Virus record (IMG/VR): IMGVR_UViG_3300028840_003357
Location: 1-61,703 of that record
Length of the DNA stretch: 61,703 nucleotides
Reading direction: 5' to 3' (one strand)
Source: a virus
Lineage: Duplodnaviria; Caudoviricetes
The stretch's first letter is position 1; every line of letters starts with the position of its first letter. The notes below the pieces were generated by a model. The model ran no database searches. It saw only the letters and a list, made by a program, of their open reading frames with translations, and had not been told where the DNA came from. Both the position numbers and the translations under genes were made by a program. Positions 3 through 44,720 of the stretch are shown here, one piece after another.

Positions 3-965
3 ACATACGTGACGCCAAGTGATAGCACCTGCGGCATCTGTACATCGTGCAACCTGTGCGTGAACGGGTGCGGCCTATTCCAGAATGACGTTTGTGTGAG
101 CGCAAGCGGTTCATTCTACGGTTGCGGCCACGGCCTTCAGTTCAGCGGGGAGTCATCTGGGTGCTACCTGTGCTTTGACGGGGGCAATTGGGTAGCCGGA
201 AGCCCTCCTGCTACCGTGTGGTGTAACAGTAGCGGGGGTGGGTGTATCGAGCCTGTTGACGGCGGTTGCATAGTGTGGGCCGGGAATGGCATGTGCGCTC
301 AGGGCTGTATCGAGGCAACAGCGTGTCTGATCGCCAGTTCAGAGGTCCACGGAGGAGGCATTTGTGCCTCCTCGTATATGTGCGCTCCCATCTACTGCGG
401 GTGTATGCACACCACCAGCCTGTGCCACGAAAGCGAAAGCGATGGATGCGCACTTGTGTACTGTGGTGCCAGCGGTGGCTGGGTGCCGGGCAGTGCAGGC
501 GGTGCGAGCGTTTGGAGCGATGCCGGTGGGTACATCTGCGTGACCGATATGAATTGCACCATGTGTTTCCAGCACAGTTGCTTCTGCGGGTGCATCCTAT
601 CACAGGACAACTGCTTCTGCTATGATTACTCAACGCAGGCCCTGTGCTTGGGTTGTTTGTATGTCGGAGGCTCCCCTGTAGGCGCATCCCTGTGGGTGGA
701 CAATAACGGATATATCTCGCCGCCTACCGGGTGCGGGATCTGCTGGAATAGTTCCGGTTCTCACTGTGTCGGGGACGGAGGTTCGAAGTTCAACCTTGAT
801 TACAACAGTGACTATCTGTGCTTTGATATGGGGTGTATCTGTACCTCGTCGGGCTGGCAGGGATGGTACATCAACGGAGCCACGGCGTCGGGGTTCTGTA
901 ACTTCACCGACCAGGCAGGGTGCCAGTTCTGTTTCTGCAACGGACTGTTCATCGGTGCCTCATAG
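3..965 (+). CDS. Cys-rich tail fibre-like protein (5' partial)
   Basis: Frame is open from the window edge; ~42 Cys in 318 aa; repeated G-A-S-x-W-x-D-x-x-G-Y-I-like units; lies upstream of the putative lysis genes. Confidence 0.55.
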   Translation, partial: TYVTPSDSTCGICTSCNLCVNGCGLFQNDVCVSASGSFYGCGHGLQFSGESSGCYLCFDGGNWVAGSPPATVWCNSSGGGCIEPVDGGCIVWAGNGMCAQGCIEATACLIASSEVHGGGICASSYMCAPIYCGCMHTTSLCHESESDGCALVYCGASGGWVPGSAGGASVWSDAGGYICVTDMNCTMCFQHSCFCGCILSQDNCFCYDYSTQALCLGCLYVGGSPVGASLWVDNNGYISPPTGCGICWNSSGSHCVGDGGSKFNLDYNSDYLCFDMGCICTSSGWQGWYINGATASGFCNFTDQAGCQFCFCNGLFIGAS

Positions 966-986
966 AAGAGAAAAGTGTGACGGATC

Positions 987-1025
987 CCTAACCAGGGGAG
1001 ACCGTCGAAGTCCTAACCAAGGGAG
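987..1025 (+). promoter_or_regulatory. Tandem CCTAACCA hairpin motifs next to the RBS
   Basis: CCTAACCA at 987 and 1012, each closable as CC-TAACCA(N)-GG; the motif recurs at 51451/51488 and 55883/55906. Confidence 0.5.
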
Positions 1026-1032
1026 AAGGAAG

Positions 1033-1947
1033 ATGAACGAGAAGGCAGAGAAGAAAGCGGAGAATGTGCTGTTCATAGTGGACGGCGGAATCGGGAAGAA
1101 CATAATGTCGACGGTGCCGATAAGAGGAATCAAGCAGAAGTATCCTGACAAGAAGCTGCTTGTCGTCTGCGGATATCCAGACGTGTTTGCGAACAATCCG
1201 AAAGTTCACCGGGCGTATTCTTTCGCCAACACCTCATTCCTGTACGACGATTTCATCGCCGGCGGGAAGGCAATCGTTCTGAAGACGGAGCCGTATCATC
1301 ACAACGACTACATCAACGGAAGCAGACATCTGGTCGACGTCTGGTGCGAACAGCTTGGAGTGCCATTCGAATCGCCGAAGCCGGAACTGTATTTCACCTC
1401 GAAGGAGAAGAGAGAGGCAAAGCGTTTCGCGGAAAGCAAGAGAAAGCCTCTGTTCTTCGTTCAGTTCGAGGGCGGTGCTCCGCCACAGCCGAACAAGATG
1501 GTTCCGAAGATGTTCGTGAGAAGCCTTCGCAGGGAGACGGCTCAGGAAGTGGTGAACAGGATGAAGAAAAAATATCATCCGATGCTCCTGAAGGCGGCGA
1601 CGCAACAGGATCTCGACGGTGCGGAGAACGTCTCATATCCCATGCGCTTGTCGATGTCTCTATTCGCTGAGGGAGCCAAGTTCCTGCTCATAGACTCGAT
1701 GTTCCAGCACGTTGCCGCGGCGATGGACAAGAAGGCGGTCGTCTGTTGGTGCGCCACTTCGCCAGACAGGCTTGGATACAAGTCACACCAGAACATCAGG
1801 ATGAGCGATTGTCCCACGCCAGAGTGTCACCGGCCGAACAGTTTTCTGTTTGACAGAGACGGGACCCAGCAACCGTGGAGCTGTCCTCACGATGAGAGCT
1901 GTACGGATCACGACGCGAAAATGATATTGGATAAACTGAGAAAGTGA
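1033..1947 (+). CDS. Glycosyltransferase, GT9 (heptosyltransferase)-like GT-B fold
   Basis: N-terminal GGIGKNIMSTVPIRGIKQKYPD and C-terminal IDSMFQHVAAAMDKKAVVCW match GT9 patterns; ATG 1033 follows GGGAGAAGGA. Confidence 0.75.
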   Translation: MNEKAEKKAENVLFIVDGGIGKNIMSTVPIRGIKQKYPDKKLLVVCGYPDVFANNPKVHRAYSFANTSFLYDDFIAGGKAIVLKTEPYHHNDYINGSRHLVDVWCEQLGVPFESPKPELYFTSKEKREAKRFAESKRKPLFFVQFEGGAPPQPNKMVPKMFVRSLRRETAQEVVNRMKKKYHPMLLKAATQQDLDGAENVSYPMRLSMSLFAEGAKFLLIDSMFQHVAAAMDKKAVVCWCATSPDRLGYKSHQNIRMSDCPTPECHRPNSFLFDRDGTQQPWSCPHDESCTDHDAKMILDKLRK

Positions 1948-11387: not shown

Positions 11388-12569
11388 CTATTTGCGACGC
11401 CTTCCTGAGCGCCTCTTCTTTGGCTTCTCCTCTTCCTCTTCTGCCTCTGGATCCTCGATGTACCCCTCGCCTTTGCAGATGCGACAGGTACGACCGCGGG
11501 TGTTCTTTCCTCTGCCTTCGCAGGCGGGGCAGATCACGTAACCGTCAGGAACGTCGTCAGGATCGATGCCACCTTCCCCGTCTTCGCCATCTTCGCTCTT
11601 CTCTGAGCTCGGCTCTGGCGAGGATTCCTGCTCCTGGCTCCCATCCTCCTCGTTTCCCTCCTCTTCCTCAGGTTCTTTCTTCTTGCGACGTCGCCTGCGA
11701 GGCTTCTCTTCCTCCTCTTCCTCTTCACCCTTTTCCTCTTCAGGCTCTTCCTCAGGCTCCTTCTTTTTCCTGCGCCTGCCACCGACTGACCGCTTCGGCT
11801 TCTCCTCCTCTTCGGGTTCTTCCTCTTCGCCTTCGCCGACGTCGTCCTCGCCTATCCCCTGGAACTTCGCCTCGATCTCCTCATAGGTGAGGATCATGAG
11901 AACTCCGTCAAGGTTGACGACCTGTTCCAGCAGTTCGTCGTCATAGTCTTCCCTGGACTTGAAGTCGATGCTGACGCACGGGAAGGAAGTGAATCCCTGA
12001 CCGTCGCTTCCTGTTCCTTTCTTCTCTTCGAAGTCACAGATGAGCGTGCATCCGTTCTCCAATTCAAAGAAATCGCCGCGCTCTTCGAGGTCCTGTGCGA
12101 CTCTCTTCTCCAGCAGTTCGCCGAAGAGAAAAGTGCTGTAGTCGAGCACCATCACGACCGGTTCGTCCGCCTGGATATCGACGACGTTATACAGCGCTCT
12201 GTTCTTGGGCCATAGAGCCCGGAGCGTGTCCTTGTCTGCGTCGCCACTCCTGCTGAGGCTTTCGGCCTCTTCGCAGATCGGGCAAGGCTCGCCGATGCTT
12301 CTCGGACAGACGATCCTTTCGTTGTTGACTCCGACGTCCTTGTGGATCATGAAGGGACGCGTGTACCAGGTATCTCCCTGTTCCACCTCGTCAGGATGAG
12401 ACTCATCCGTGACCTTGTACGGAAGTATATCCAGCTTGTACGTCTTGCCCTCGGGCGTGAACAGCTCGACATCTTCCGGCAGGTCGACATATCTCGCTCC
12501 GCTGAATGCTCGACCCTTCTTTGCCGCCTTCCGCTTGTGAAGGTCGTGTTTACTCTTTTTCTTCGCCAT
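11388..12569 (-). CDS. Single-stranded DNA-binding protein (gp32-like) with charged tail and C-terminal Zn finger
   Basis: H..V...CP...GEPCPICE Zn motif, YNVVD; long E/K/R tail; CPACEGRG...CRICKGEG. Confidence 0.75.
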   Translation of the reverse strand: MAKKKSKHDLHKRKAAKKGRAFSGARYVDLPEDVELFTPEGKTYKLDILPYKVTDESHPDEVEQGDTWYTRPFMIHKDVGVNNERIVCPRSIGEPCPICEEAESLSRSGDADKDTLRALWPKNRALYNVVDIQADEPVVMVLDYSTFLFGELLEKRVAQDLEERGDFFELENGCTLICDFEEKKGTGSDGQGFTSFPCVSIDFKSREDYDDELLEQVVNLDGVLMILTYEEIEAKFQGIGEDDVGEGEEEEPEEEEKPKRSVGGRRRKKKEPEEEPEEEKGEEEEEEEKPRRRRRKKKEPEEEEGNEEDGSQEQESSPEPSSEKSEDGEDGEGGIDPDDVPDGYVICPACEGRGKNTRGRTCRICKGEGYIEDPEAEEEEEKPKKRRSGRRRK

Positions 12570-13238: not shown

Positions 13239-13445
13239 TCAGATCCTGTCTTGCGGATCCAGAATTATGTCTGGAATCCTGTGAGCGTTGTTCACGATGT
13301 AGGCTATCAGCTCTGGCCATCGCTGTCTCATATCTTCCTGTTCGTAGCACCAGACCAGATAGGAGTCTGGAACGTCCTCCATCTTCCTGCCTTTGTACTT
13401 TCCGAAAGGCATCTCGTCATTGTGTTCAAGGATCGTTGGCATCAT
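13239..13445 (-). CDS. DUF3820 / exonuclease X C-terminal-like small protein
   Basis: MPFGKYKGRKMEDVPDSYLVW motif. Confidence 0.75.
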   Translation of the reverse strand: MMPTILEHNDEMPFGKYKGRKMEDVPDSYLVWCYEQEDMRQRWPELIAYIVNNAHRIPDIILDPQDRI

Positions 13446-13972
13446 TTTCCTCCATAGCATCTGTGATACATGTCAAGAAACTGGTGCTCGGCCGCTTCTG
13501 GAGTCATCGGCACGATCGGTATCGTCTTGGCGACCTTCACCTTGATGAAAGGTTCTGACATCAACTGTTCTTCCGCCAGACGAACCTTGTCGTTTGCCTT
13601 CCTGACTTCTGGAGGCAGACCGAGATACGGCTCGTCTATCTCAAGAAGTCCAAAGCGCCTGAACACTATGACGTCCACGGGTCTGTTGGCGTGCCTGATC
13701 TCTTCGTACAGGTGATTGTCAACCTGCGAGGCGAGAACGTCTCCGTAATATGCCTTCGGAGCTTCGTGGAGAAGAGCCCACAGACGCATCTCTTTTCCCA
13801 CGAGACCGGCGACGGTCAGACTGTGTTGAGCGACGCTGTAGAACCATCTGCACGCTCCGTTGAAGCAGCAGATATTGCTGAGGTGGTGGGCCACGTCTTT
13901 GATGTCTATGTCCTCCAGCTTCAGCCTGTCAAGGTTGAGTAGTTTCCCGGTGTAGGTTGGCATTGAATCCAT
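13442..13972 (-). CDS. HD-domain (YfbR/DatZ-like) nucleotidase, degenerate motif
   Basis: DIDIKDVAHHLS..C.FNG, YSVAQHS, LLHEAPKAYYGDV (family consensus LLHD..EAY.GD). Confidence 0.75.
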   Translation of the reverse strand: MDSMPTYTGKLLNLDRLKLEDIDIKDVAHHLSNICCFNGACRWFYSVAQHSLTVAGLVGKEMRLWALLHEAPKAYYGDVLASQVDNHLYEEIRHANRPVDVIVFRRFGLLEIDEPYLGLPPEVRKANDKVRLAEEQLMSEPFIKVKVAKTIPIVPMTPEAAEHQFLDMYHRCYGGK

Positions 13973-14865
13973 CAGCAATCCTCCGTGTATCTGTGCATGT
14001 TTCCAACGCTGACGACAACCTCATAGCCGTCGACGTCTACGGCTTCACAAATCATACATGACATGCGACTGAGCACGTCCGTATCCTTCCTGATCATCTC
14101 CACGTCCTGAGATCGCTGGAACACGGAGCAATAGAGCTTGTCTCTTCTGACTTGAAACTGTGCCGAGACGTAGCAGTTCGGAAGCGGTTGTGCTTGACTG
14201 AAAGCGATGACTGCCTGCCTTGACATCGGATCGTCCTTGAGGATCCTCTTGACTCTTTTTATTTCATTCCAGTTGACCTTCAGTTTCTTGAGGACATAAT
14301 CGTTCTCTTCTCTGTCCTGAGGAGAACAGAAGAAATCGTCGTTGAATGTGTATCCATAATTGAGTATCTCCAGAACCTTTCTTCCGTCCGCTAGTTCTCC
14401 CTGTTCGCCTGCGAGGTCGACATACTCTCTTGTCTTCTCCACAAGTTCGCTGGCCGGCGTCACTCTTTCGATGTAGTCTGCGACTTCTTTGTCCTTCGCG
14501 CAGTATCCTATCAGCCGTCTGTAGAAAACGTGGAAGGATTCAAGAGCGTAGTCGCCGATACCTGTCATGTCTTTCAGCAGATCCGCTTCGCCTTGCATGA
14601 TCTTTTTCTTCTGAGACTGAGTCAGGCCGATCCATTCACCGGAGAAGTCTCTTATCATCTTTGCCTTGCGATTCTGGAGGCCGAGGCTTGCGAGAGGTTC
14701 GGCGATCTTCTCTTCATCCGAAGTCCATACCTTCGAGGGATTCCAGAACCGTTTGAAGAAACCTCGCATGACTTCCTTCACTTTCCTTCCGGTCGTACGG
14801 TTCAGCATGATACAGGCGACCATCATCTTCCACGGATCATTCCTGTAGATGTCTTGGACCATCAT
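13972..14865 (-). CDS. Fusion: MBD4-like HhH DNA glycosylase + thymidylate synthase/dNMP hydroxymethylase-like domain
   Basis: N-terminal PWKMMVACIMLNRT, LGL, GIGDYA..S...F and a conserved Asp; C-terminal D.MSRQAVI, LPNC, QF, FQRSQD, GNMHRY. Confidence 0.75.
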   Translation of the reverse strand: MMVQDIYRNDPWKMMVACIMLNRTTGRKVKEVMRGFFKRFWNPSKVWTSDEEKIAEPLASLGLQNRKAKMIRDFSGEWIGLTQSQKKKIMQGEADLLKDMTGIGDYALESFHVFYRRLIGYCAKDKEVADYIERVTPASELVEKTREYVDLAGEQGELADGRKVLEILNYGYTFNDDFFCSPQDREENDYVLKKLKVNWNEIKRVKRILKDDPMSRQAVIAFSQAQPLPNCYVSAQFQVRRDKLYCSVFQRSQDVEMIRKDTDVLSRMSCMICEAVDVDGYEVVVSVGNMHRYTEDC

Positions 14866-15737
14866 GACTGCACCTCTTTCGTCTCATACTGATCCGAACC
14901 GTACATCAATTCGTTGCGAGTCTTATCGTGGAGAGTCCAGTCATTCTCTCCTTCGTCGCTGACCTTGTGATCGTCGTTTCTTTTGTAGATACAGTTCGCC
15001 GTGTATCCTCGCTTCTGATGAAAGCACCTTCCGTCGCCGCAGTGCGACTTGAAATATGAAGTCATCCAGGGGAACTTTTCCGACACGAGAATTTTCATGT
15101 CCTGAACCATGATATTCATCTCCGGATGTTCTTCCTGATCGCATACGCGCTTGGCATATATCGACAGAAGAGTCGGAAGCGTGACGCTCACGTAGCACCA
15201 ACTTGGAATGGTCTTCGGCAGGCAGAACCTGGCGTCGCCGTTGGCTATCTCTCCGGTGTCGAGAAAGTCTGAGTACAGTCTCTTTCCCTCCTGAACCCAG
15301 TTCTCATATCGTTCCAGAAGCTCCGGGAACTTCGTGAAGGCTCTCGGAACGAGGACGTCGCTGTGCCGAAAGTCTTTGACCGCTTGAGACTGCTGCATGT
15401 AGCAGATGCCGATCCTGTTTCTGACAAGCGAATGGGTGCCGTGAAGGCTCAGACCTTCGACGCGAAAGCAGAACTTTGCGTGTTCGAGTCCCTGTCCAAG
15501 CATCCTTCCATTCATCAGTCCATCGATGGTCTCTTCCACATCCTCTTCTGCGGCTTCCATCATGTAATCCTTGTACCACGATGCCTGCGACATGTTGACG
15601 AAGACTCTCTTCAGTCTCTCCGGATCCGGCCAGTCGATGAGTTCGACCTTGACCGCCATCAGGTTGTCGATGAACTTCGTCCTTGGCTTCTGACCTTTCT
15701 TGATTCCAAACATCTGCTTGATTCTTTTCAGGTTCAT
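14862..15737 (-). CDS. thyX: Divergent flavin-dependent thymidylate synthase (ThyX-like)
   Basis: LEH..F.F.VEGLS...H.LVRNR...QQSQ and DARFCLP; the canonical RHR...S.R motif is altered. Confidence 0.7.
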   Translation of the reverse strand: MNLKRIKQMFGIKKGQKPRTKFIDNLMAVKVELIDWPDPERLKRVFVNMSQASWYKDYMMEAAEEDVEETIDGLMNGRMLGQGLEHAKFCFRVEGLSLHGTHSLVRNRIGICYMQQSQAVKDFRHSDVLVPRAFTKFPELLERYENWVQEGKRLYSDFLDTGEIANGDARFCLPKTIPSWCYVSVTLPTLLSIYAKRVCDQEEHPEMNIMVQDMKILVSEKFPWMTSYFKSHCGDGRCFHQKRGYTANCIYKRNDDHKVSDEGENDWTLHDKTRNELMYGSDQYETKEVQS

Positions 15738-15895
15738 GCCTTCTCCACTCCATGCTTATCCACGTGCCGCTTGATCACGTCGCCGCTTTCGAGACGGACG
15801 AGGACTGTGTTGCGATTGACCTTTACCACGAACGCTATCACTCTTCTGGCGTCCACCATCACGCTGACTCTGTCTCCAACTTCCAGCACTTCCAT
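15734..15895 (-). CDS. Small SH3/KOW-like beta protein (53 aa)
   Basis: Translated by hand: MEVLEVGDRVSVMVDARRVIAFVVKVNRNTVLVRL...; coupled at both ends. Confidence 0.6.
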   Translation of the reverse strand: MEVLEVGDRVSVMVDARRVIAFVVKVNRNTVLVRLESGDVIKRHVDKHGVEKA

Positions 15896-17160
15896 CAGCC
15901 TTTCCTCCTCTCTTTTTCTTTCAACAACTTCCTGTATCTGTCCTCGACTATCGAAGACTTCTCGTCGAATAGCCGGAACAGTTCTTCAGGTGTGATTCCC
16001 CACGCTATCATGAGATTCAGGACGTATTTGAAAACATCGACGATCTCCATCTTGACAGCGTGTTCGTCGACGACCTTCGCTTCTCTGTGAATCTTGTAGT
16101 TGACGCCGTCGAGGATCTCTCCGATTTCTGGATACAGATGGAGGATGAAGTTCTTGGTCAGCTGATCCCTGTATTCGTCATCGGCGAGCCTATTGAAATC
16201 ATGGAATCTCCGCGTGAAGTTCATCTGCCTGTTCCACACCATCCTGAAGTCAATGTCGAACTTCGCCTGCCGAACTACATCGCCGATCTTGATCCTGTGG
16301 TCCCAGTTGGCGAACCTTCCTGCGAAGAGGATCCGCTCTGGAGAAACGTTGTTCAGATTCGTCATGATGACGCTTCTGGGATCGATCCAGTAATCGACGA
16401 CGGAATCTGGACCGCCGGGAACAAGCGAAGCCACCACGTCAGGCGGAAGCTGTCCGGGAAATTCGTAGAGGAATGGTCCCTCGCCTCTGTTCCTTGTCAC
16501 CACTCTTGCCTGCTGATACTCGTCGTCGACGAAGTACATCACGCTGAAGGATTCCGGATCGATGTCGTCGATGATCCTGTCGCAAAGTACGAAGGTTGTG
16601 GCGCCGCTGGCCAGCTCGATTTCTGGATCCGGCTTTCGATGATAGAGTTCCCAGAAGATGTCAGCTGGAATCGTCGACACTATCTCGTCGTATGTGTAGC
16701 TTGTCGTGTCGCTGACGATGGCCTTGTCGGTGATGCGAATGACCTCGTCCTTGACGAACGACGCCCCGTCGGATAGTTTCTGTATCAGTTCTTGGAAGTC
16801 TATCTCGAAGGTGTCGATGTAGTAATCGCCTGTGCTGAGGTTGAAGTCTTTCGGCTCGAAGGCAACGTCCATCATCTTCTTTCGGATCAGTGCGAGCTTA
16901 TCCTGTTCCGTTATCTTCTCCATCACCTTGCCGCCTTTGAAATACTTGATCCGTCTGGTGCTCTTCTCATATTCAGTTCCTGTGTCTATCAGGAGGCGCT
17001 CGGTGTCTTCGCAGGCGTGAAGGAAGATCGTGTTTGCCATTCCTTCCCTGGCGAGCTTTCCGCCAACTTCCGGTGAGATGATTTTGAATTCTGGATTGTA
17101 GTACGCCCAGATGAGACCGGATAATCCGCCGCCGATGATGTACTTGCCTTCGTTGCGCAT
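15895..17160 (-). CDS. Fusion: FAD-dependent oxidoreductase (UDP-galactopyranose mutase-like fold) + all-alpha dUTPase/MazG-like domain
   Basis: YIIGGGLSGL, IVSTIP, FAGRFANW; C-terminal EIGEILD...YK.H...EIVDVFKY. Confidence 0.75.
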   Translation of the reverse strand: MRNEGKYIIGGGLSGLIWAYYNPEFKIISPEVGGKLAREGMANTIFLHACEDTERLLIDTGTEYEKSTRRIKYFKGGKVMEKITEQDKLALIRKKMMDVAFEPKDFNLSTGDYYIDTFEIDFQELIQKLSDGASFVKDEVIRITDKAIVSDTTSYTYDEIVSTIPADIFWELYHRKPDPEIELASGATTFVLCDRIIDDIDPESFSVMYFVDDEYQQARVVTRNRGEGPFLYEFPGQLPPDVVASLVPGGPDSVVDYWIDPRSVIMTNLNNVSPERILFAGRFANWDHRIKIGDVVRQAKFDIDFRMVWNRQMNFTRRFHDFNRLADDEYRDQLTKNFILHLYPEIGEILDGVNYKIHREAKVVDEHAVKMEIVDVFKYVLNLMIAWGITPEELFRLFDEKSSIVEDRYRKLLKEKERRKG

Positions 17161-18068
17161 CAGAAGAACTCCTTTCTGGATTTCAGTTGTTCGTGGATGT
17201 TGTTGATCTCAGAGAACCTATCGATGCATTGGTGACTGCAGATGTATGGGAGGCACATCTTGTTCAGCTTCGTGTGTTCGACAGCCTTTTTCCATATCGA
17301 CGACCACGGATCCGAGAAGACGTTTCCGAAAGGTCTGATCAGTGGAGCTATGTCGACATCGTTGTTGGTCAGGCAACACGGAAAGACATCGCCGTCCGAT
17401 CCTATGTACAGCTGATAGAATACCGCGTAACAGTTCCTGAACTTGAAAGGATTCCCCTCTGGATCCGCGCCGTCGCAGGTTCCGTGATACGCACCCTTAC
17501 ACTTGACTTCGATTCCTCTCTCTTCGCACCACGCCTCTATCTTCTCCTGTTCGCCTTCGTTGGCCTTGTGGATCGTCGGTCTGACTCGAACGGTGACTTC
17601 GCCCAGCACCATCTTCTCTATTCCGTCGAGGACCTCGCCGACTGACACGCTATCTCCTCTGACCAACTTGTAGACATCCGGATCGATGGCGTCAAGACTA
17701 CAGCTGACGAACTTGGCTTGCGACAGGAGTCCCAGATCGATAGTCGGCGGCAGATAGCCGCTTGTCACCACGCCGAACGGAAAGTCTTTTTTGATATGCC
17801 AGTCCATGAGGATGTTGAAGTCGGTGTGGCAGAAAGGATCGCCGCCGGTGTAGCAGACCGTCTCGACTGGATCTCGTAGCCAGGTGAGAAAGTTGGTCCA
17901 CTCCACGACCTTCATGATGTTCTTCTTTTTCCTGAGTCTGTGACGGCACATCAGGCAACTGTTGAAACAGTGATCCGTGATGGCAACGTGAAGCGAGACA
18001 GGTGCGCCAAGCCTTCCCGTCTTGACGTAGTTGACATACTGCTTGATCTTGTCTGTTCTGTCCATCAC
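17160..18068 (-). CDS. Radical SAM enzyme with SPASM/twitch domain
   Basis: CFNSCLMC, TGGDP, SLDA, C...F..LYIGSDGDVFPCC, C...C. Confidence 0.9.
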   Translation of the reverse strand: MMDRTDKIKQYVNYVKTGRLGAPVSLHVAITDHCFNSCLMCRHRLRKKKNIMKVVEWTNFLTWLRDPVETVCYTGGDPFCHTDFNILMDWHIKKDFPFGVVTSGYLPPTIDLGLLSQAKFVSCSLDAIDPDVYKLVRGDSVSVGEVLDGIEKMVLGEVTVRVRPTIHKANEGEQEKIEAWCEERGIEVKCKGAYHGTCDGADPEGNPFKFRNCYAVFYQLYIGSDGDVFPCCLTNNDVDIAPLIRPFGNVFSDPWSSIWKKAVEHTKLNKMCLPYICSHQCIDRFSEINNIHEQLKSRKEFF

Positions 18069-18419: not shown

Positions 18420-21400
18420 CTATCCGACGTATTCGAAGAGACAGATTCTCTTTCCGTGTGCCTCTGGTCTGTCGCTGTGGATCGTCCTGACGAACTGCCA
18501 TTTTCTTGTGTTGAAGATCGCACCCCACTGGGGATCCTCTAGCTCGACGTCATTGGCTTCGCACCAGCTTCTTGCTTCAAGGACAGAGACAGGCTCGCCT
18601 GTTCTGAAAAAGAGATCTTTCATTGCGTTCCTGATCCTGGCGAACTTTTCCTTCGTCGATGTGCCGCCTTTCCTTTCGACGCTCTTGAGGATCCGGTTCC
18701 TGATCTCCAATCCGCGCTGCCTTCCGGCTTCTCCTCTCTCCTTCTTGTCCGCCTTTCCTTCCACACGGCTTCGAGGCGTTCCGAGGTCGGCTCCCACGGC
18801 TTCCAATGTCCGCGCAAAGTTCTTCAAGCCGGATATGAGTGGACGCCGATTCTCAGCCGAATGGAGAGCCGAAGCCGGATGGACGCAATAGCATATCCAG
18901 GCGTTATGGATCGGGCTCCATTCCGTAGTCGCGTTCAGCGACATGATGCCGGACTTCTGTCCGCTGATCCACTGGAGAGGAGTGTTGCCAAGGACGAGGA
19001 TGACCACAGGTTTGATCTCTTCCACCTCCTTGTCGAGCCACCTTTCTGAACAGGTTCTCATCTGCTTCGTCGTCGGCGCCTTCCCCTTCCCAGGAAAACA
19101 CTTCGCGACGTTGGTGACGTGGATGAGATCGCGAGTGATCCCCTGCTTTCCAAGAATCTGCCACGCCAACTTTCCTGACGCACCTATGAACGGAGTCCCC
19201 TCCGCGTCTTCATCCTTCCCTGGTGCTTCGCCGACGGCCATCACATTCCATAGTCCCGGATCCGCCGGAACAGGGCCGCGACATATCTTGGAGAGCTCAC
19301 AGCTTTCGCAATTGTCAAGGCTGACGAGGCACTCTGGATCCGCCGCCTGCTTGGAGACGCCTATCAGATCGACGTCCATGTCGAAGATGTCCGCCGACTT
19401 CAGTTGATCGTCGAACCATATCTTCTGGCAGAACACGTTCTTGATCCTCTGCTTGCCGCCGACGTTGATTCCTTTTCCTCTGGTGGATTCGATGACAACG
19501 TTCTTGCCTTTGCAGTGTTCGATCTCATCTTTCCTCTGCTTGTAAAGGTCGCCATCGAAGGTGATCATCTCCGCGGCCGAATCGTCTCTGATGTATCCGT
19601 AGACGCCTCCGAGCGATGAGGATCCAGCGCGTCTGGCGGAGTGGCTTTGGACTCCTTTCTTGTAGCTGTACTTCATCTCGTCGATCTTCCCAAACATCAA
19701 TGCGGTCTTGTCCACATATCCTCCTGTCAGGATGTCGTCTATCGAGTAGAGATACGGATCGAGGAGGTTCAGGATTCCTCTGATGTCGCGAAGGGGATCC
19801 TGTGACATGTCGAAGGCGAGAAGGTCTGCTATCTCCTCCACTTCATCGTCGGTGAAGGACAGCTTCTCATCGTCGAAGGCATGGACTCTTTGGAGAACCT
19901 TGACGATGTTCGACGGCAGGTTCTTGTCGACTTCCTTCTCGGCGAAGAACCCCTCCTGAGCGACTCCTTCCCTCAGCTTCCTGATCTTCTCACACGCCTT
20001 CGGCCCTATGCCTTTGATCTCCAGAAGAGGCATCAACAAGTCTGTTCCTTTCGCCACCCACGACTCCGGTTCTGAAGTCTTGACCTTCGGCGGAACGATC
20101 TTCAGCTTCAGGCGTCTGGCTTCCTTGATGAGCTCGTCCTTGAGATCATCCTTGGCATGCGTCAGAGTCGCGGCCATGAATTCCGCCGGATAGTACACCT
20201 TCAGCCACATGTCCCAGTAGGTGATCATGGAATACTCGACCGAATGAGATTTGTTGAAGCCGTACGACCCGAAGCTGGATAGTTCGTCCCATACCTCGCC
20301 GGCGGCCGATGGATCCAGAGTGCCTTTCTTGCTACAGCCTTCGACGAACATCGTCTTGTACTTCGCGAAGAGACTATCGCCTTGACTCTTGCTGACGACC
20401 TTGCGGATCAGGTCGCAATTCTTCCAAGTCATTCCTGCCAAGTCGTACGCCAACATCATAATCTGTTCCTGATAGAGAATGATGCCGTGCGTGTCTTCGG
20501 TCAGGTCTTTCATGCTCGGATGGATGTGTTCCCATTCGCTCTCGCCATTCTTCCTCGCCCTGAATTCTTCCGCCGTTCCTGCTCTCAAGGTGCCTGGTCG
20601 CCACAGGGCAGTGGCATCCACGATGTCGGAGAACTTTTGGATGCCGAGCGCTTCGCAGAACCTTCTGAGCCCCGGCGAAGACAACTGAAAGGCACCGACC
20701 GTGTGTCCCATTGAGACTTCGGCGAGGACATCAGGATCGTCGAGCGTCAGGCTTTCATAGTCGACGTCGACTCCGTGGTTCTTCTTGATCATGTCCTTGG
20801 CATCGGACAGGACGCTCAAGGCAGACAGGCCAAGCACGTCAAGCTTCATCATCCCGAAGTACTCGACGTCGTGCTTGTCCCAGTTTGCGACGACGACATC
20901 CTTTCCTCTGACCGCAAGAGAACAGCGCCTTCCTTCCAGAAGGCTCTCTTCAGACACGCATATCCCTGCCGCGTGTTGTCCCGCTCCTCTGACCTGTCCC
21001 TCTATCCTCATCGCGAAGTCTGCGACGTGGGGATATTTCTTCTTGAACCGCTTTCCATCTTCGAAGGTCTCGAAGGCATCCTCTATCGTGTAGTCAGCGC
21101 GATCGTCTCCCATGGACCTGACGACGATGGCCTTCGCCGCCTTGTCTATGTCGATGTATGGAAGGTCGAAGACTCTGCCGATGTCTCTGATCGCCGCCTT
21201 TCCTTTCAAGGTCGAGAAGGTGGAGACTCCAGCGACGCAATCCTTCCCGTACATGTCTTCGAGATGCTTCCTGACGAGGTGCCTCTTCCTGTCTTCAAAA
21301 TCCATGTCTATGTCCGGAAGGTCGATGCGCGCAGGCGATATGAATCTGGAAAAGACAAGACCGTGCACCAGCGGATCCACTCCTGTGATCCTCATCAGAT

Positions 21401-22556
21401 AAGCGACAAGACTTCCGCCGACGCTTCCTCTTCCTGGACCTGTCATCACGTCGTTATGTCGGCACCAGTTTATGAGCTCCCAGACGATCAGGAAGTATCT
21501 CTGGAAACCGAGATTGCAGATGATCTCCATCTCTTCCTCTATCCTGTCGTCGTACATCTTCTCCGTCACTTCCCTGTCCTTGTAATCCAGCTTCGGAGTC
21601 TTTCCCTCGATCAGTTCCTCCCAGCCGTCCTCTATGACGGACCACATCGCCTCCGTGTCGTCGTCCGATTTCACTCCCTGAACGCGAGGCAGAGAGACTT
21701 CCCTGCCCGGAAGCTCCGGGAATCCTTCGTAGCATTCTTCAGCTATCTCCACGGTCAGGTCAAGAGCTTCGTCGACGCTGGCGATCAGTTCCTTGGATCC
21801 GCCCTGTTCGATGAAGGCGTCCATCATCTCTTCTCTGGATCTGAGGTGAAGACCTGTCACACTGAACCGCCATCGGTTTGGGTCTTTCCACTTCGCCTGC
21901 CGTTGTATGGCCAAGAGGACCTCCTGAAGTTCCGCGTCTTTTTCCAGCGGATAGTGGCAGTCGTTCGTCGCCACGACGCCAATCCTCCCACCGAATTCAT
22001 CCGCGAAGTCAAGAGTCATCTCGTTCACGACCAGCTGATCTTCAAAGTCGTGCGGCATTATCTCGCCAAGCACTCTATCGTCGCCGACTTCCTGAACGAG
22101 ATTCTTCATGAATTCGAGTCCCCACTTCTCCTTCAGGATCGTGGAGGTACAAGCTGTCATCCAGAACAGACCGTCGCAGTGTTCGAAGATCATGTCCGGA
22201 TCCACCCTCGGCCGGCGATAGAATCCGTCGAGGTTCGCCTTCGTTGTCAGCTGTAACAGATTCTGCCAGCCTTTCGGATGGGCGACCAGAACAGTGACGT
22301 GAAGTCTCTTCTCCCCCTTCTCCTTGACAGACGCATCCTTGACGACGTACAGTTCGCTTCCGAAGACCGGCTTGATGTCGCCGGCTTGACATGCCTTCTG
22401 GAACTTCAGGCATCCGTCCACGTTTCCGTGGTCCGTGATGGCCAAGTACTCCATCCCAAGATCGTTGGCCCTCTCGACATACTGCTCGGCGGATCCGAGG
22501 CCATCGAGAAGGCTGTACTGATGATGGACGTGCAGGTGACAGAAGTCTTTACTCAT
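18420..22556 (-). CDS. dnaE: DNA polymerase III alpha subunit fused to a family-4 uracil-DNA glycosylase domain
   Basis: PHP HLHVH..YSLLDG, ITDHG, GRGS.GGS, PDIDMDF, GFNKSHS; C-terminal CESC, GEAPG, PFIG.SG, NVAKC, HPA. Confidence 0.95.
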   Translation of the reverse strand: MSKDFCHLHVHHQYSLLDGLGSAEQYVERANDLGMEYLAITDHGNVDGCLKFQKACQAGDIKPVFGSELYVVKDASVKEKGEKRLHVTVLVAHPKGWQNLLQLTTKANLDGFYRRPRVDPDMIFEHCDGLFWMTACTSTILKEKWGLEFMKNLVQEVGDDRVLGEIMPHDFEDQLVVNEMTLDFADEFGGRIGVVATNDCHYPLEKDAELQEVLLAIQRQAKWKDPNRWRFSVTGLHLRSREEMMDAFIEQGGSKELIASVDEALDLTVEIAEECYEGFPELPGREVSLPRVQGVKSDDDTEAMWSVIEDGWEELIEGKTPKLDYKDREVTEKMYDDRIEEEMEIICNLGFQRYFLIVWELINWCRHNDVMTGPGRGSVGGSLVAYLMRITGVDPLVHGLVFSRFISPARIDLPDIDMDFEDRKRHLVRKHLEDMYGKDCVAGVSTFSTLKGKAAIRDIGRVFDLPYIDIDKAAKAIVVRSMGDDRADYTIEDAFETFEDGKRFKKKYPHVADFAMRIEGQVRGAGQHAAGICVSEESLLEGRRCSLAVRGKDVVVANWDKHDVEYFGMMKLDVLGLSALSVLSDAKDMIKKNHGVDVDYESLTLDDPDVLAEVSMGHTVGAFQLSSPGLRRFCEALGIQKFSDIVDATALWRPGTLRAGTAEEFRARKNGESEWEHIHPSMKDLTEDTHGIILYQEQIMMLAYDLAGMTWKNCDLIRKVVSKSQGDSLFAKYKTMFVEGCSKKGTLDPSAAGEVWDELSSFGSYGFNKSHSVEYSMITYWDMWLKVYYPAEFMAATLTHAKDDLKDELIKEARRLKLKIVPPKVKTSEPESWVAKGTDLLMPLLEIKGIGPKACEKIRKLREGVAQEGFFAEKEVDKNLPSNIVKVLQRVHAFDDEKLSFTDDEVEEIADLLAFDMSQDPLRDIRGILNLLDPYLYSIDDILTGGYVDKTALMFGKIDEMKYSYKKGVQSHSARRAGSSSLGGVYGYIRDDSAAEMITFDGDLYKQRKDEIEHCKGKNVVIESTRGKGINVGGKQRIKNVFCQKIWFDDQLKSADIFDMDVDLIGVSKQAADPECLVSLDNCESCELSKICRGPVPADPGLWNVMAVGEAPGKDEDAEGTPFIGASGKLAWQILGKQGITRDLIHVTNVAKCFPGKGKAPTTKQMRTCSERWLDKEVEEIKPVVILVLGNTPLQWISGQKSGIMSLNATTEWSPIHNAWICYCVHPASALHSAENRRPLISGLKNFARTLEAVGADLGTPRSRVEGKADKKERGEAGRQRGLEIRNRILKSVERKGGTSTKEKFARIRNAMKDLFFRTGEPVSVLEARSWCEANDVELEDPQWGAIFNTRKWQFVRTIHSDRPEAHGKRICLFEYVG

Positions 22557-23403
22557 TCCAAAGCCTCCCCAGTCTCTTCTTGATTTCATCTTCACCGATC
22601 GCCGAAGTCTTATCGCCGGCGAAGGTTCTCTCTTTGTCGTAACCGAACGCCCAGACATCCTTGGCGTACATCTCTTCAACCATGTCAGCTGTCTCTTCAT
22701 CGTACAGCTCTTCCATCGGCGGCTTTTCCTTGACGTAGTGCATCCGCTGATGGATCGTCAGGTCGTGATCGAATCCTATCATGTCGCACATCGCATCCCA
22801 GTCCCAGAGAAGGTTCTCGAACCTTCCGATGAATGAAAGGTCGGGGTGGGTCCACCTCCACTGCTGATCTGGAATCCTGTAGCGTGGCGAATTCACGTCC
22901 AGAGAAGAGACGATCTTCTCGACGTGTAGCTTCCTGACGAAGTCTTTGAAAGTCTTACAGCCTTTCAGCTGTGTGTGTTGGGACGTGTTGCCGAAGACGA
23001 ACCAGACGGACATCATCCGCGTCCACGGATTCCTGACGAAGCAGAAAGAGAGCACGCCGTCGAAGAACTCCTGCGGACACAGCCCCTCATTCATGATGAC
23101 ATTCAGGGGCATGTGGTTGTAGCAGACGTGGAAGCGATTCAGATCCGGGCGTTCGCCGCGCCGCAGGTGTTCGAACTCCGCGATCCTGCTCAGCCGTCCG
23201 ATCCTGATGTAGTTGATGACGTTCCGCTTGAAGACAAAGTGCATTGACTCAGAAGCGGTCCTCGGAACCTTCAGAAAGATGAACGGCTTCACCTTCTGAC
23301 CCGAGGACCCCATCTGCCTGTTTCTATCCTCGCAGTCGGCCAGGGTTTCCACGATGCTGTGGTCACTCCTGGCCGACCTTGAGCGCTTGGACTTGGCCGC
23401 CAT
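22549..23403 (-). CDS. Sulfotransferase (Sulfotransfer_2-like)
   Basis: FIFLKVPRTASES (5'-PSB), FVRNPWTR..S (3'-PB), FIGRFENL, Y..D...FGY. Confidence 0.8.
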   Translation of the reverse strand: MAAKSKRSRSARSDHSIVETLADCEDRNRQMGSSGQKVKPFIFLKVPRTASESMHFVFKRNVINYIRIGRLSRIAEFEHLRRGERPDLNRFHVCYNHMPLNVIMNEGLCPQEFFDGVLSFCFVRNPWTRMMSVWFVFGNTSQHTQLKGCKTFKDFVRKLHVEKIVSSLDVNSPRYRIPDQQWRWTHPDLSFIGRFENLLWDWDAMCDMIGFDHDLTIHQRMHYVKEKPPMEELYDEETADMVEEMYAKDVWAFGYDKERTFAGDKTSAIGEDEIKKRLGRLWNE

Positions 23404-43211: not shown

Positions 43212-44720
43212 ATGCCAAGAAAGTCGAAGATGAAAGAGACCGGAAGGGCCAACGTGAAGACGATGGCGGTGAACCGAGTACTTCAGGAACAGTTGAGCCT
43301 CTTGGCGGGCACGATCCAACAGCGACGTGCTCTTGCCCACGGTCTTGGAAAGTCTTACGAAGGCCAGCGAGATCTGTACCTCGCACTTGGCTACAAGAAG
43401 GTGATCGAGTACACCGACTATCTGGACAAGTACGAACGGCAGGACATCGCCAAGCGGATCGTGACCGCCTATCCCGATGCGACCTGGCGCGGTGAACCTG
43501 TCGTCTATGAGACGGAGGATCCAGAACCGACTTCGTTCGAAGAGGCGTGGCAGGAACTAGCCAGGGACAAGAACGTGCTCCAGTATCTCACCAGGCTGGA
43601 CAAGATGGCGGGCATCGGACGCTACGCCGTTCTGTATCTCGGATTCAGCGACGTGGAGAAGCCAGAGGACGCGCAGGAAGAGGTGACGAAGGCGGAAGGC
43701 AACGAGCTACTCTTCCTTCAGCCGTACAGCGAAACGAACGCCGAGGTGAACACCTGGGACAACGACCACTCGTCCGAACGATACGGACTGCCGATGACCT
43801 ACAAGCTGAAGGTCAAGAACCTGAACAACGCCACCGGAACGAAGGCGGATGAGTCCCTGTCCACCACCGACGTCGTCGTCCACTGGAGCAGAGTCATCCA
43901 CGCGGCGGAGGGACTTCTTGAATCGAACGTGTACGGGACGCCTCGCCTGAAGGCGGTCTTCAATCGTCTTGACAACCTTGACCTCATAGCCGGAGGATCC
44001 GCCGAGTCGATGTGGCGTGGTGGTTTCCCCGGTCTGGCCTTCGAGCTGGATCCAGAAGCCGAGCTCACACCTCAGGACGCCGAAGACCTCGACAAGCAGA
44101 TAGACGAGTACGTTCACTCGCTTCGGAGATATCTCAGGCTCCAGGGAATGAAGGCCAACAGCCTGAACCCTCAGATAGCGGATCCGGATAGTCACGTCAA
44201 GGTCCAACTGGAATTGATCTCAGGTGCGACGGGAATCCCCGTCCGTATCCTGACCGGTTCGGAGCGCGGCGAACTAGCATCCACTCAGGACAAGGAGAAC
44301 TGGTCGGACAGGGTGTCGGAGCGCAGGAAAGACTTTGCCGAGCCTTCGATCCTGAGACCTTTCGTCGACAGGTTGATAGAGTCAGGCGTCCTTCCTGAGC
44401 CGGCGGAAGGATACTTCGTGGCGTGGCCGGACGTCAACGCACTGTCTGACAAGGAACAGGCGGAGATAGCACAGATCAGGACGAAGGCGATAGCGGAATA
44501 TGTGAAGGCGGGTGCGGAGATGCTCATACCGCCGTACGCCTTCCTGACATCGATAATGGGATTTGAACAGACGGAAGCGGAGGCGATGCTGGACGAGCTT
44601 GAACAGATGCTCAAGGAAGAGGAAGAGGACGCCGCCGCGATGGCAGATGAAGAGGCGATCAAGAAGCAGGAAGAGGAAGCTGCCATGGAAGATGAAGAGG
44701 AAGAGGAGGACGCCGCTTGA
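43212..44720 (+). CDS. Portal protein (DUF1073-like)
   Basis: Y.R.DIA.RIV, RYGLP..Y, VHWSRVIH, GIPVRILTG.ERG.LAS..D; position after terL. Confidence 0.85.
   Translation: MPRKSKMKETGRANVKTMAVNRVLQEQLSLLAGTIQQRRALAHGLGKSYEGQRDLYLALGYKKVIEYTDYLDKYERQDIAKRIVTAYPDATWRGEPVVYETEDPEPTSFEEAWQELARDKNVLQYLTRLDKMAGIGRYAVLYLGFSDVEKPEDAQEEVTKAEGNELLFLQPYSETNAEVNTWDNDHSSERYGLPMTYKLKVKNLNNATGTKADESLSTTDVVVHWSRVIHAAEGLLESNVYGTPRLKAVFNRLDNLDLIAGGSAESMWRGGFPGLAFELDPEAELTPQDAEDLDKQIDEYVHSLRRYLRLQGMKANSLNPQIADPDSHVKVQLELISGATGIPVRILTGSERGELASTQDKENWSDRVSERRKDFAEPSILRPFVDRLIESGVLPEPAEGYFVAWPDVNALSDKEQAEIAQIRTKAIAEYVKAGAEMLIPPYAFLTSIMGFEQTEAEAMLDELEQMLKEEEEDAAAMADEEAIKKQEEEAAMEDEEEEEDAA

Follow-up and report, generated by a model that had tools for sequence, protein, structure and literature searches.

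The window analysed here is the whole 61,703-nucleotide stretch of IMG/VR virus record IMGVR_UViG_3300028840_003357 (Duplodnaviria; Caudoviricetes), and it is essentially one tailed-phage genome. Genes for the large terminase, portal, head-morphogenesis, capsid, and tape-measure proteins lie on the plus strand between 41 and 61 kb, and a block of replication and nucleotide-metabolism genes occupies the minus strand between 2.5 and 40 kb. The subject of this article is an open reading frame (ORF) at 13972..14865 (minus strand; 297 amino acids (aa), ATG start) that has two Pfam domains, an MBD4-like DNA glycosylase and a reduced thymidylate synthase (TS) core that is termed mini-TS below. At its start the ORF overlaps the stop codon of the ThyX-like gene that lies upstream (ATGA), and at its end it runs into the start of an HD-phosphatase gene downstream; it therefore sits within an operon.

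The fused glycosylase and thymidylate synthase domains

A HMMER scan of 1.84 billion representatives returned 964 matches at E ≤ 1e-3. Among the 150 of these matches that were listed, 8 are full-length fusions, 1 is a truncated fusion, 119 match the glycosylase half only, and 22 match the TS half only. Seven full-length homologues of the ORF are 280-297 aa in length. An AlphaFold2 model of the 297-aa protein was built on a 68-row alignment consisting of all 12 fused homologues, 21 stand-alone C-terminal halves, 2 fragments, and 33 N-terminal-half homologues chosen from the 119; its predicted local distance difference test score (pLDDT) is 96.5 and its predicted template modelling score (pTM) is 0.92. 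A first-pass annotation, made from the sequence without database searches, had proposed an MBD4-like glycosylase fused to a minimal TS fold, and Pfam, search of the PDB, and superposition of the model with VIA all agree with it. The motifs that it quoted (PWK, LNRTTG, LGL, GIGDY, KDKE, LPNC, and RSQDVEMIRKD) are all present in the ORF, and the catalytic residues, a glycosylase Asp (D125) and a TS Cys (C231), are in place. Taking sequence matches and predicted structure together, this is a two-domain protein in which both domains are real, with matches beyond chance.

The N-terminal domain (aa 1-143; 14437..14865, minus strand) matches Pfam HhH-GPD (PF00730) over aa 16-139 (E 4.3e-7; 30.7 bits against a cut-off of 26.2), finds MBD4 glycosylase domains in the PDB by phmmer (E 1e-10), and superposes in VIA on these domains (4e9g/6vjw) with a Z of 18.8, a root-mean-square deviation (rmsd) of 2.1 Å, and 29% identity over an alignment of 129 residues, of the 138 in 4e9g. 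The likeness to the MBD4 glycosylase domain (4e9g, 6vjw, 1ngn) extends from the HhH-GPD fold to an N-terminal 'vQ', the LN(R/Q)T and GIG.Y motifs, and the catalytic Asp, all of which align; in the query, PWK lies at aa 11-13, LNRTTG at 21-26, LGL at 61-63, GIGDY at 102-106, and KDKE at 124-127. Asp125 (codon 14491..14493, minus strand), which aligns to the catalytic Asp of MBD4, is invariant in a 7-sequence alignment and is kept in 11/12 fused and 32/33 stand-alone glycosylase homologues, the fused exception (P0010) being apparently an alignment offset. Judging from the alignment and chain range, it is presumably D560 of human MBD4, and the base-pocket residues Q4 (kept in 11/12 fused and 33/33 stand-alone homologues) and Y106 (also 11/12 and 33/33) are taken to be human Q449 and Y540. 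N22 is kept in every homologue (12/12 fused, 33/33 stand-alone), and the Arg-finger position is Arg in the query and Gln in about half of the homologues. The protein is not MBD4 proper: it opens directly with the glycosylase domain, Pfam detects no domain in it that would bind methyl-CpG, and, unlike mammalian MBD4, it carries a TS-fold domain. Sequence and model show the N-terminal domain to be a monofunctional HhH-GPD glycosylase of the MBD4 type that has kept its catalytic Asp and the residues of the base pocket. It looks like a competent monofunctional mismatch-pyrimidine glycosylase and is predicted to excise T, U, or 5-substituted U opposite G; the repair of a deamination product, which had been suggested for it, is plausible.

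The C-terminal mini-TS domain (aa 136-297; 13975..14460, minus strand), recognized by Pfam, VIA, and hhalign, has the TS core sheet and helices A, B, H, and J. Pfam Thymidylat_synt (PF00303) matches aa 197-295 (E 1.3e-9; 38 bits against a cut-off of 24.3), with a match that spans only profile positions 107-213 of 266, and sequence search of the PDB with the C-terminal half returns TS chains at a best E of 5e-5. In VIA, aa 136-297 superpose on TS-family chains with Z 16-17 and rmsd 2.2-2.6 Å, 161 of 162 residues being aligned. The top chains are the deoxycytidine monophosphate (dCMP) hydroxylase AfhB of HY126 (9iqu, Z 17.0; with dCMP and flavin adenine dinucleotide (FAD), 16.5), MilA (Z 16.4), and L. 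casei TS (Z 16.4), all tied within 1 Z. The aligned chain ranges run from TS residue 1 to near 267 (L. casei numbering), and the C-terminal half is therefore a TS fold that extends from the N-terminal helix as far as the strand bearing His/Tyr and has deletions within it and at its C-terminus.

The residues of the nucleotide site could be followed through several alignments. The family profile aligns with P. falciparum TS (PfTS) to C490 ('PPC'), R510, S511, D513, N521, H551, and Y553; in E. coli ThyA numbers, which follow from the matched ranges, S-R falls on R126, R-S-x-D on R166/S167/D169, and H-x-Y on H207/Y209, and the invariant family Asp falls, ungapped, on the Asn of 'PFN'. By hhalign, the family aligns with E. 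coli ThyA over only residues 109-211 of 264 (Prob 97%, E 7e-11), with its Asp on N177, and with T4 gp42 over residues 18-220 (Prob 97%, E 6e-11), with its Asp on D179 and its Cys on the gp42 Cys. The query carries all of the family residues (K194, R216, C231, R251, S252, D254, D261, H291, and Y293), LPNC lying at aa 228-231 and RSQDVEMIRKD at aa 251-261. Cys231, equivalent to the TS nucleophile Cys146, is encoded at 14173..14175 (minus strand TGC, plus strand gca), and Cys occupies this column in 21/21 stand-alone and 9/12 fused homologues, with P0007 keeping a Cys that is offset in the alignment. Asp261 (14083..14085; minus strand GAT, plus strand atc), at the position of ThyA Asn177 and T4 gp42 Asp179, is Asp in 21/21 stand-alone and 11/12 fused homologues. 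The positions of R216, R251, S252, and H291 are kept in 21/21 stand-alone mini-TS proteins, and that of D254 (ThyA D169) is Asp in 19/21 stand-alone and 10/12 fused homologues. The first-pass annotation had contrasted Asn in deoxyuridine monophosphate (dUMP) enzymes with Asp in T4, and the aligned position indeed reads ThyA '...glpfN' and gp42 '...fgfrnD'. It had also placed the Asp of RKD at this specificity position with a one-residue gap, and D261 does fall on the PfTS Asn, ThyA N177, and gp42 D179; the query loop between R-S-x-D and D261 is one residue shorter than in TS, and in other family members the loop is longer by one residue, which gives exactly the spacing of TS. An invariant Asp at this position supports the predicted specificity for dCMP.

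The remainder of the TS active site is altered or missing. Lys194 (14284..14286, minus strand) is aligned by hhalign to the catalytic Glu (T4 gp42 E60; ThyA E58), the family 'YV..Ki..Y' standing opposite T4 'eyiqrelewy' with Lys on Glu in a single profile alignment of moderate confidence, in which the gp42 E60 position was counted from the printed alignment. This position is Lys in 19/21 stand-alone and Lys or Arg in 11/12 fused homologues. The gp42 residues ~67-107, which include the equivalents of W80 and Y94, have no counterpart in mini-TS, so that the W80/W83/Y94 segment is gone, and the C-terminal ~55 residues of TS are gone as well, the alignment stopping at ThyA ~211/264 and the protein ending 4 residues past the Tyr. 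The L143 position is Leu228 in the query and is variable in the family (L, K, and others).

Set against known enzymes, the 162-aa domain shares with the 264-aa E. coli ThyA (PF00303) the core sheet and the equivalents of Cys146, R126, R166, S167, D169, H207, and Y209, and differs from it in having Asp for Asn177 and Lys for Glu58 and in lacking the W80/W83/Y94 segment and the C-terminal ~55 residues. With T4 gp42 it shares the fold and the aligned Cys148, R-S-x-D, and Asp179; unlike gp42, it lacks residues ~67-107 and ~221-246 and has Lys for Glu60, and its L143 position is Leu, where gp42-type enzymes carry an acidic residue. The 5-hydroxy-dCMP synthases (RB69 gp48, DLP3 gp80, and HY126 AfhB) resemble it as TS folds that act on dCMP without folate chemistry and have Asp at 177, and they are nominally the best structural match (Z 17.0, tied with MilA and TS within 1 Z), whereas they are full-size (~234 aa), single-protein enzymes, and their D169N signature, as given in PMC13326640, is absent from the query, which has Asp254.

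PMC13326640 also associates Asp at the N177 position with a preference for dCMP, an acidic residue at L143 with hydroxymethyl products, and Leu at that position with methyl rather than hydroxymethyl products; it gives D169N as the mark of flavin-dependent 5-hydroxy-dCMP synthases and places W80 and Y94 among 12 residues within 6 Å of C5. It also indicates that TS folds can use flavin in place of folate (PMC13326640; PDB 9iqu, 9iqc; RB69 gp48, HY126 AfhB), and loss of the folate site therefore need not equal loss of catalysis. In the TS half of the fused protein, the predicted site for the nucleotide seems complete and specific for cytosine, the canonical folate site is missing, and another residue takes the place of the catalytic Glu. 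With the W80-Y94 segment and the last ~55 residues lost and Lys in place of Glu58, the domain is unlikely to be a folate enzyme that works on its own; the strong conservation of its nucleotide-site residues argues that it is not dead. A TS domain both lacking a folate site and inactive had been named in advance as fatal to the proposed activity; the first part is borne out, and the conservation of the nucleotide site argues against the second.

The mini-TS family and its partner genes

As judged from its sequence, the TS half is one member of a rare and apparently undescribed family that also occurs stand-alone. Mini-TS is defined here as a TS core of ~155 aa with Cys, R-S-x-D, Asp at 177, Lys at 58, and a C-terminal G-[NS]-x-H-x-Y, encoded after ThyX-like and FAD-oxidase-dUTPase_2 genes, and all of these features are found in the query. 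The 22 TS-half-only matches comprise 20 complete proteins of 154-167 aa, one 89-aa fragment, and P0124 (346 aa), in which mini-TS is followed by a C-terminal domain of the uracil-DNA glycosylase (UDG) superfamily (Pfam UDG, 9.5e-15). P0124 is a predicted second, independent fusion of mini-TS to an unrelated pyrimidine-glycosylase fold (UDG as against HhH-GPD). Because L080, from a close relative of the window phage, has a mini-TS without the glycosylase domain, and because P0124 has a UDG domain instead, the glycosylase domain is regarded as accessory.

The family is scarce in the collections that were searched. When 50,697 deposited phage genomes were searched by tblastn, neither a fused homologue nor a mini-TS came to light, and the matches were limited to glycosylases that stand alone (9 records) and to ordinary homologues of TS (7 records). 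No cultured phage with the fused gene is known to us. IMG/VR scans with P0059 and P0124 as queries gave no matches, and one with A6 gave only full-size TS homologues, plus L003. Searches of a literature collection that covers subscription papers only in part did not turn up a fusion of TS to a glycosylase, a family of truncated TS proteins, or the present combination of genes. MBD4-like glycosylases that stand alone (~120-140 aa) are common in phages, with 76 IMG/VR loci, 72 of them without the TS half; these stand-alone genes (L005-L076) lie on many phage contigs, including jumbo contigs of >200 kb. A mini-TS hidden Markov model (HMM) run against all loci with stand-alone MBD4-like genes recovered only the fused loci and L080, apart from one weak match in L052 that is probably an ordinary TS, so that the MBD4-like glycosylases of phages are not, as a rule, linked to mini-TS. 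Among ESM Atlas neighbours of aa 136-297, which with scores <0.9 serve as leads only, are short viral TS clusters (184-212 aa), TS cores fused to MtrA or to PterinBD-DUF4346/pterin-binding domains (Cyanobacteriota/Cyanobacteria and Nanobdellota/Archaea), and TS cores fused to thymidylate kinase and, in viruses, to dCMP deaminase. These leads hint that the TS core may be split from its cofactor-binding part elsewhere too.

Mini-TS genes keep constant company. In 6/6 loci with upstream DNA (the window, L001, L003, L080, L094, and L095; L096 and L097 end at the mini-TS gene), the gene order is FAD-oxidase-dUTPase_2, ThyX-like, mini-TS, and this three-gene set lies beside a DNA polymerase gene. 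Two polymerase families, DnaE and PolB, are represented. Mini-TS is fused to the MBD4-like domain in the window (DnaE with a UDG domain), in L001, which is identical in L002, L004, and L077-079 (DnaE), and in L003, and it is stand-alone in L080 (DnaE-UDG), in L094 (family-B polymerase), and in L095, which has a family-B polymerase and an MT-A70 gene inserted in the set. Several homologues of the mini-TS, ThyX-like, and FAD-oxidase proteins also share longest-contig values (e.g., 104803, 62252, 26058, 7731, and 3303), which suggests further co-location. In the window, the FAD-oxidase fusion is separated from the ThyX-like gene by a 53-aa ORF (15734-15895, minus strand), which L080 lacks at this place, its two genes abutting.

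The upstream neighbour of the fused gene (14862..15737, minus strand) encodes a divergent ThyX-like protein of 291 aa (Pfam Thy1, E 2.6e-24) with 65 homologues at 44-68% identity. Aligned to C. glutamicum ThyX, it has RNR in place of the RHR motif and S-Q-A-V in place of S-x-R-Y. All 22 rows of the subfamily, which were compared against one canonical phage ThyX, have R-[N/T]-R (N or T for H79) and S-x-A-V (Ala for R90 and Val for Y91), and all keep the equivalents of R78, R80, S88, R147, and R174, the numbers being those of T. maritima ThyX. The subfamily has in addition a C-terminal extension (aa ~235-275) with nearly invariant C238, H240, C249, and H270, which may form a metal site. In PMC11940539 and PMC6514825, Y91 of ThyX is described as a lid over uracil C5 and flavin N5 and as the proposed general acid, assisted by the adjacent Arg. 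L001 carries, 5 kb downstream of its divergent copy, a second, canonical ThyX (14951-15667, plus strand; 238 aa, E 3e-37) that lacks the C-terminal Cys/His extension. The divergent protein is therefore not simply a synthase of thymidine monophosphate (dTMP) and should have another task; by its predicted active site, the ThyX-like partner is not a normal thymidylate synthase. A complex prediction for the ThyX-like protein and the mini-TS domain, run without controls, gave a score of 0.00 and a mark of 0.32, which speaks neither for nor against binding.

The third member of the set (15895..17160, minus strand; 421 aa) joins a Rossmann domain resembling FAD amine oxidases and UDP-galactopyranose mutase (UGM) to an all-alpha dUTPase_2 domain of the dUTPase/dCTPase type. 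The protein begins with a GGGLSG Rossmann motif, and Foldseek search with its AlphaFold2 model (pLDDT 90.8) returns L-amino-acid oxidase, UDP-galactopyranose mutase, monoamine oxidase, and protoporphyrinogen oxidase at E 1e-11 to 1e-10. The Pfam dUTPase_2 match (E 5.9e-4) is below the cut-off in this protein and above it in orthologues, and hhalign aligns the C-terminal helices with the T4 gp56 dCTPase/dUTPase over 40 columns (Prob 82%, E 1e-5). Sequence search of the PDB with the 421-aa protein gave 0 matches, so the fold is known only from the model.

Adjoining the set is the gene for DNA polymerase III alpha (DnaE; 18420..22700, minus strand; 1426 aa), with Pfam DNA_pol3_alpha (1e-74), PHP, and finger domains and a C-terminal UDG-superfamily domain at aa 1152-1285 (Pfam UDG, E 4.7e-23). 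The orthologue in L080 (L080 1-3270) also has the UDG domain, together with an intein-like insertion with an HNH-type Cys/His motif, judged by eye. On the other side, the gene downstream of the fused ORF (13442..13978, minus strand) encodes a 178-aa protein like HD-type deoxyribonucleoside 5'-monophosphate phosphatases (phrog_318, E 8e-34); among the 8 stretches searched it is found only in the window, outside the conserved set.

A candidate route to modified deoxycytidylate

The first-pass annotation had envisaged that a single protein could make a C5-modified dCMP. This does not stand as proposed: the folate-site segments are lost, the catalytic Glu has become Lys, mini-TS is always accompanied by the ThyX-like and FAD-oxidase/dCTPase-like partners, and the glycosylase is an accessory that is absent in L080. 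We instead favour, at about even chances, a pathway of several proteins in which mini-TS binds dCMP and contributes Cys-C6 activation toward a C5-modified deoxycytidine nucleotide for replication. In such a pathway, mini-TS would bind dCMP and form a covalent Cys-C6 adduct that activates C5, and, being unable to use methylenetetrahydrofolate in the manner of ThyA, would act as one component of the three-gene set. The FAD-oxidase/dCTPase-dUTPase-like protein would supply the deoxynucleoside monophosphate (dNMP) and deplete the canonical deoxynucleoside triphosphate, as T4 gp56 does, and the ThyX-like flavoprotein, 'lidless' in its altered motif, would probably supply a one-carbon or other C5 substituent. 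Together the three proteins would make C5-modified deoxycytidylate to be incorporated by the adjacent phage DNA polymerase, and the fused glycosylase would rid phage DNA of the deaminated form of the modified cytosine, or of U or T that is out of place.

By analogy, the arrangement parallels that of T4, in which the gp56 dCTPase, a TS-fold dCMP-modifying enzyme, and the polymerase are neighbours; both phages have a dUTPase_2-type dNTPase and place these genes beside the polymerase (gene 43 in T4), and the co-occurrence of td and gene 42 in T4 may be compared with that of canonical ThyX and the three-gene set in L001. Unlike the mini-TS phages, T4 has neither the ThyX-like protein nor the FAD-oxidase-like domain, and the modifying step appears here to be split over three components, namely, a TS core without its cofactor site, a ThyX without its lid, and an additional FAD-oxidase domain. 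A division of labour of this kind is known from TrmFO and MnmEG, in which flavin carries the methylene and a protein Cys activates the pyrimidine at C6; these enzymes have unrelated folds and RNA substrates and are a mechanistic analogy only to what is proposed for the ThyX-like and mini-TS proteins. A recurrent tie of the pathway to pyrimidine excision is shown, at the level of predicted domains, by the fusions of mini-TS to UDG in P0124 and of the polymerase to UDG in the window and L080.

Several observations weigh against this pathway. Glu58 has become Lys, and the W80/Y94 segment and the C-terminus, which classical TS chemistry needs, are lost, so that the domain could be non-catalytic. 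In 3/12 fused homologues (P0007, P0011, and P0017), some or all of the TS Cys, Arg, and His have been lost and the glycosylase residues are kept; a basic residue is conserved near the ThyA Arg21 position, in an uncertain register with R21 itself unmapped. The fusion of UDG to polymerase is linked to T-modified rather than C-modified genomes in PMC13697223, and an HD dNMP-phosphatase-like gene adjoins the fused gene; on these two counts a thymine-replacement scheme fits better.

Taking the first of these points furthest, the TS half could be a non-catalytic nucleotide-binding, dimerisation, or docking module that tethers or regulates the glycosylase, for example as an anchor to the nucleotide-synthesis/replication complex or as a dCMP sensor, a possibility that we rate as rather unlikely. 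It is favoured by the missing folate site and the Glu58 to Lys change, by the three fused homologues with degenerate TS residues and intact glycosylases, and by the rigid packing of the two domains in the model. The query nevertheless keeps every nucleotide-site residue, and 21/21 stand-alone mini-TS proteins, which have no glycosylase, keep the Cys, both Arg, Ser, Asp, and His and fill the same slot of the three-gene set.

A bolder version of the preferred pathway, which we consider unlikely, would make mini-TS and the 'lidless' ThyX-like protein the two halves of one hybrid enzyme system that merges both unrelated TS mechanisms to yield modified cytosine. Mini-TS would hold dCMP and supply the ThyA-style Cys, and its shedding of the folate lid would leave the pyrimidine exposed; at C5, the exposed ring would take up a one-carbon unit or another substituent carried by the flavin of the ThyX-like protein, in which the Tyr lid and the Arg are gone in turn. 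The fusion of FAD-amine-oxidase-like and dCTPase domains would deliver dCMP and perhaps process the C5 substituent further, and clearing the deaminated form of the new modified cytosine would fall to the fused MBD4 or UDG domains.

The thymine-directed observations would fit a scheme in which mini-TS is a covalent-catalysis dCMP deaminase, its Cys adding at C6 and hydrolysis then removing N4 to furnish dUMP, from which the ThyX-like protein makes a 5-substituted dUMP, thymine thus being modified or replaced and the glycosylases policing U and T. C6 adducts speed cytosine deamination, as the chemistry of DNA C5-methyltransferases illustrates; the Asp at the specificity position would select cytosine, folate would not be needed, and the ThyX-like protein keeps the uracil-nucleotide Arg residues R147/R174. 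The polymerase-UDG fusion, of a type that accompanies T-modified genomes in PMC13697223, and the adjacent HD gene point the same way. This scheme is nonetheless distinctly unlikely: we know of no precedent for a TS-fold deaminase, phages can readily obtain zinc dCMP deaminases of the ordinary kind, conservation of the set does not extend to the HD gene, and the canonical ThyX beside the set in L001 would be odd in a thymine-replacing phage. A phage that keeps a dTMP synthase has probably kept thymine, which favours the cytosine pathway.

The version closest to the first-pass annotation, in which the TS half would by itself methylate or hydroxymethylate dCMP in a folate-dependent reaction, as T4 gp42 or the XP12 enzyme does, is improbable. 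The Cys, the R-S-x-D, and the Asp lie at gp42 positions, and Leu228 is at the L143 position, where Leu goes with methyl rather than hydroxymethyl products in PMC13326640. Against it, the deleted W80/Y94 segment holds two of the 12 residues that this source places within 6 Å of C5, the C-terminal tail is deleted, Lys stands for the catalytic Glu, and in each of the 6 assessable loci mini-TS is accompanied by the ThyX-like and FAD-oxidase genes. Least credible, to the point of being highly improbable, is a poison subunit that forms heterodimers with host ThyA and stops host dTMP synthesis; the TS dimer interface lies in the sheet that the domain mainly keeps, but the invariant Cys, the Asp at 177, and the deoxyribose-binding His/Tyr would be needless for a poison, and the hosts are diverse.

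Other phage genes and the meaning of the proposed pathway

Further genes of the window add detail to the setting. Directly upstream of the three-gene set lies a gene for a radical-SAM/SPASM protein (17160-18068, minus strand), and beyond the polymerase one for a sulfotransferase-family protein (22549-23403, minus strand; Pfam Sulfotransfer_2, 3e-10; phrog 'galactose-3-O-sulfotransferase', 5e-21); these two could tailor a modified base or sugar. Both, together with the HD phosphatase, were rejected as core members of the pathway, since none of the other seven stretches searched has them. A 393-aa ORF (766-1947, plus strand) with a weak match to glycosyltransferase family 9 (E 1.3e-3, below the cut-off) could be a DNA or cell-wall glycosyltransferase. 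The gp32-like single-stranded DNA-binding protein (11388-12569, minus strand) has long acidic/basic low-complexity repeats and a C-terminal CxxC...CxxC with a weak DnaJ zinc-finger match, an architecture identical in its L080 counterpart. In the structural region, an 875-aa head-morphogenesis/minor-head protein (44717-47344, plus strand) matches the PHROG 'ADP-ribosyltransferase exoenzyme' over its C-terminal aa 739-873 (E 4.9e-7), possibly an effector domain that is ejected.

Restriction and CRISPR defences are defeated by the modifications that phages make to their DNA, which are also a source of enzymes for epigenetic sequencing. To our knowledge, almost all known pre-replicative pyrimidine modifications begin from a full-size ThyA homologue. 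The pathway considered here is probably a previously undescribed route to a modified cytosine building block, built on a stripped TS core paired with an altered ThyX and a FAD-oxidase/dCTPase fusion in phages that use one or the other of two different replicases. The repeated fusion of mini-TS to pyrimidine glycosylases of two unrelated kinds would tie the making of the base to surveillance for what it decays into. If the genes do work together, they would constitute a new biosynthetic route, probably to a new DNA base, and a natural experiment in how far the TS fold can shrink; were the hybrid enzyme system to prove true, a widespread, uncultivated group of phages would carry a new modified cytosine in its DNA.

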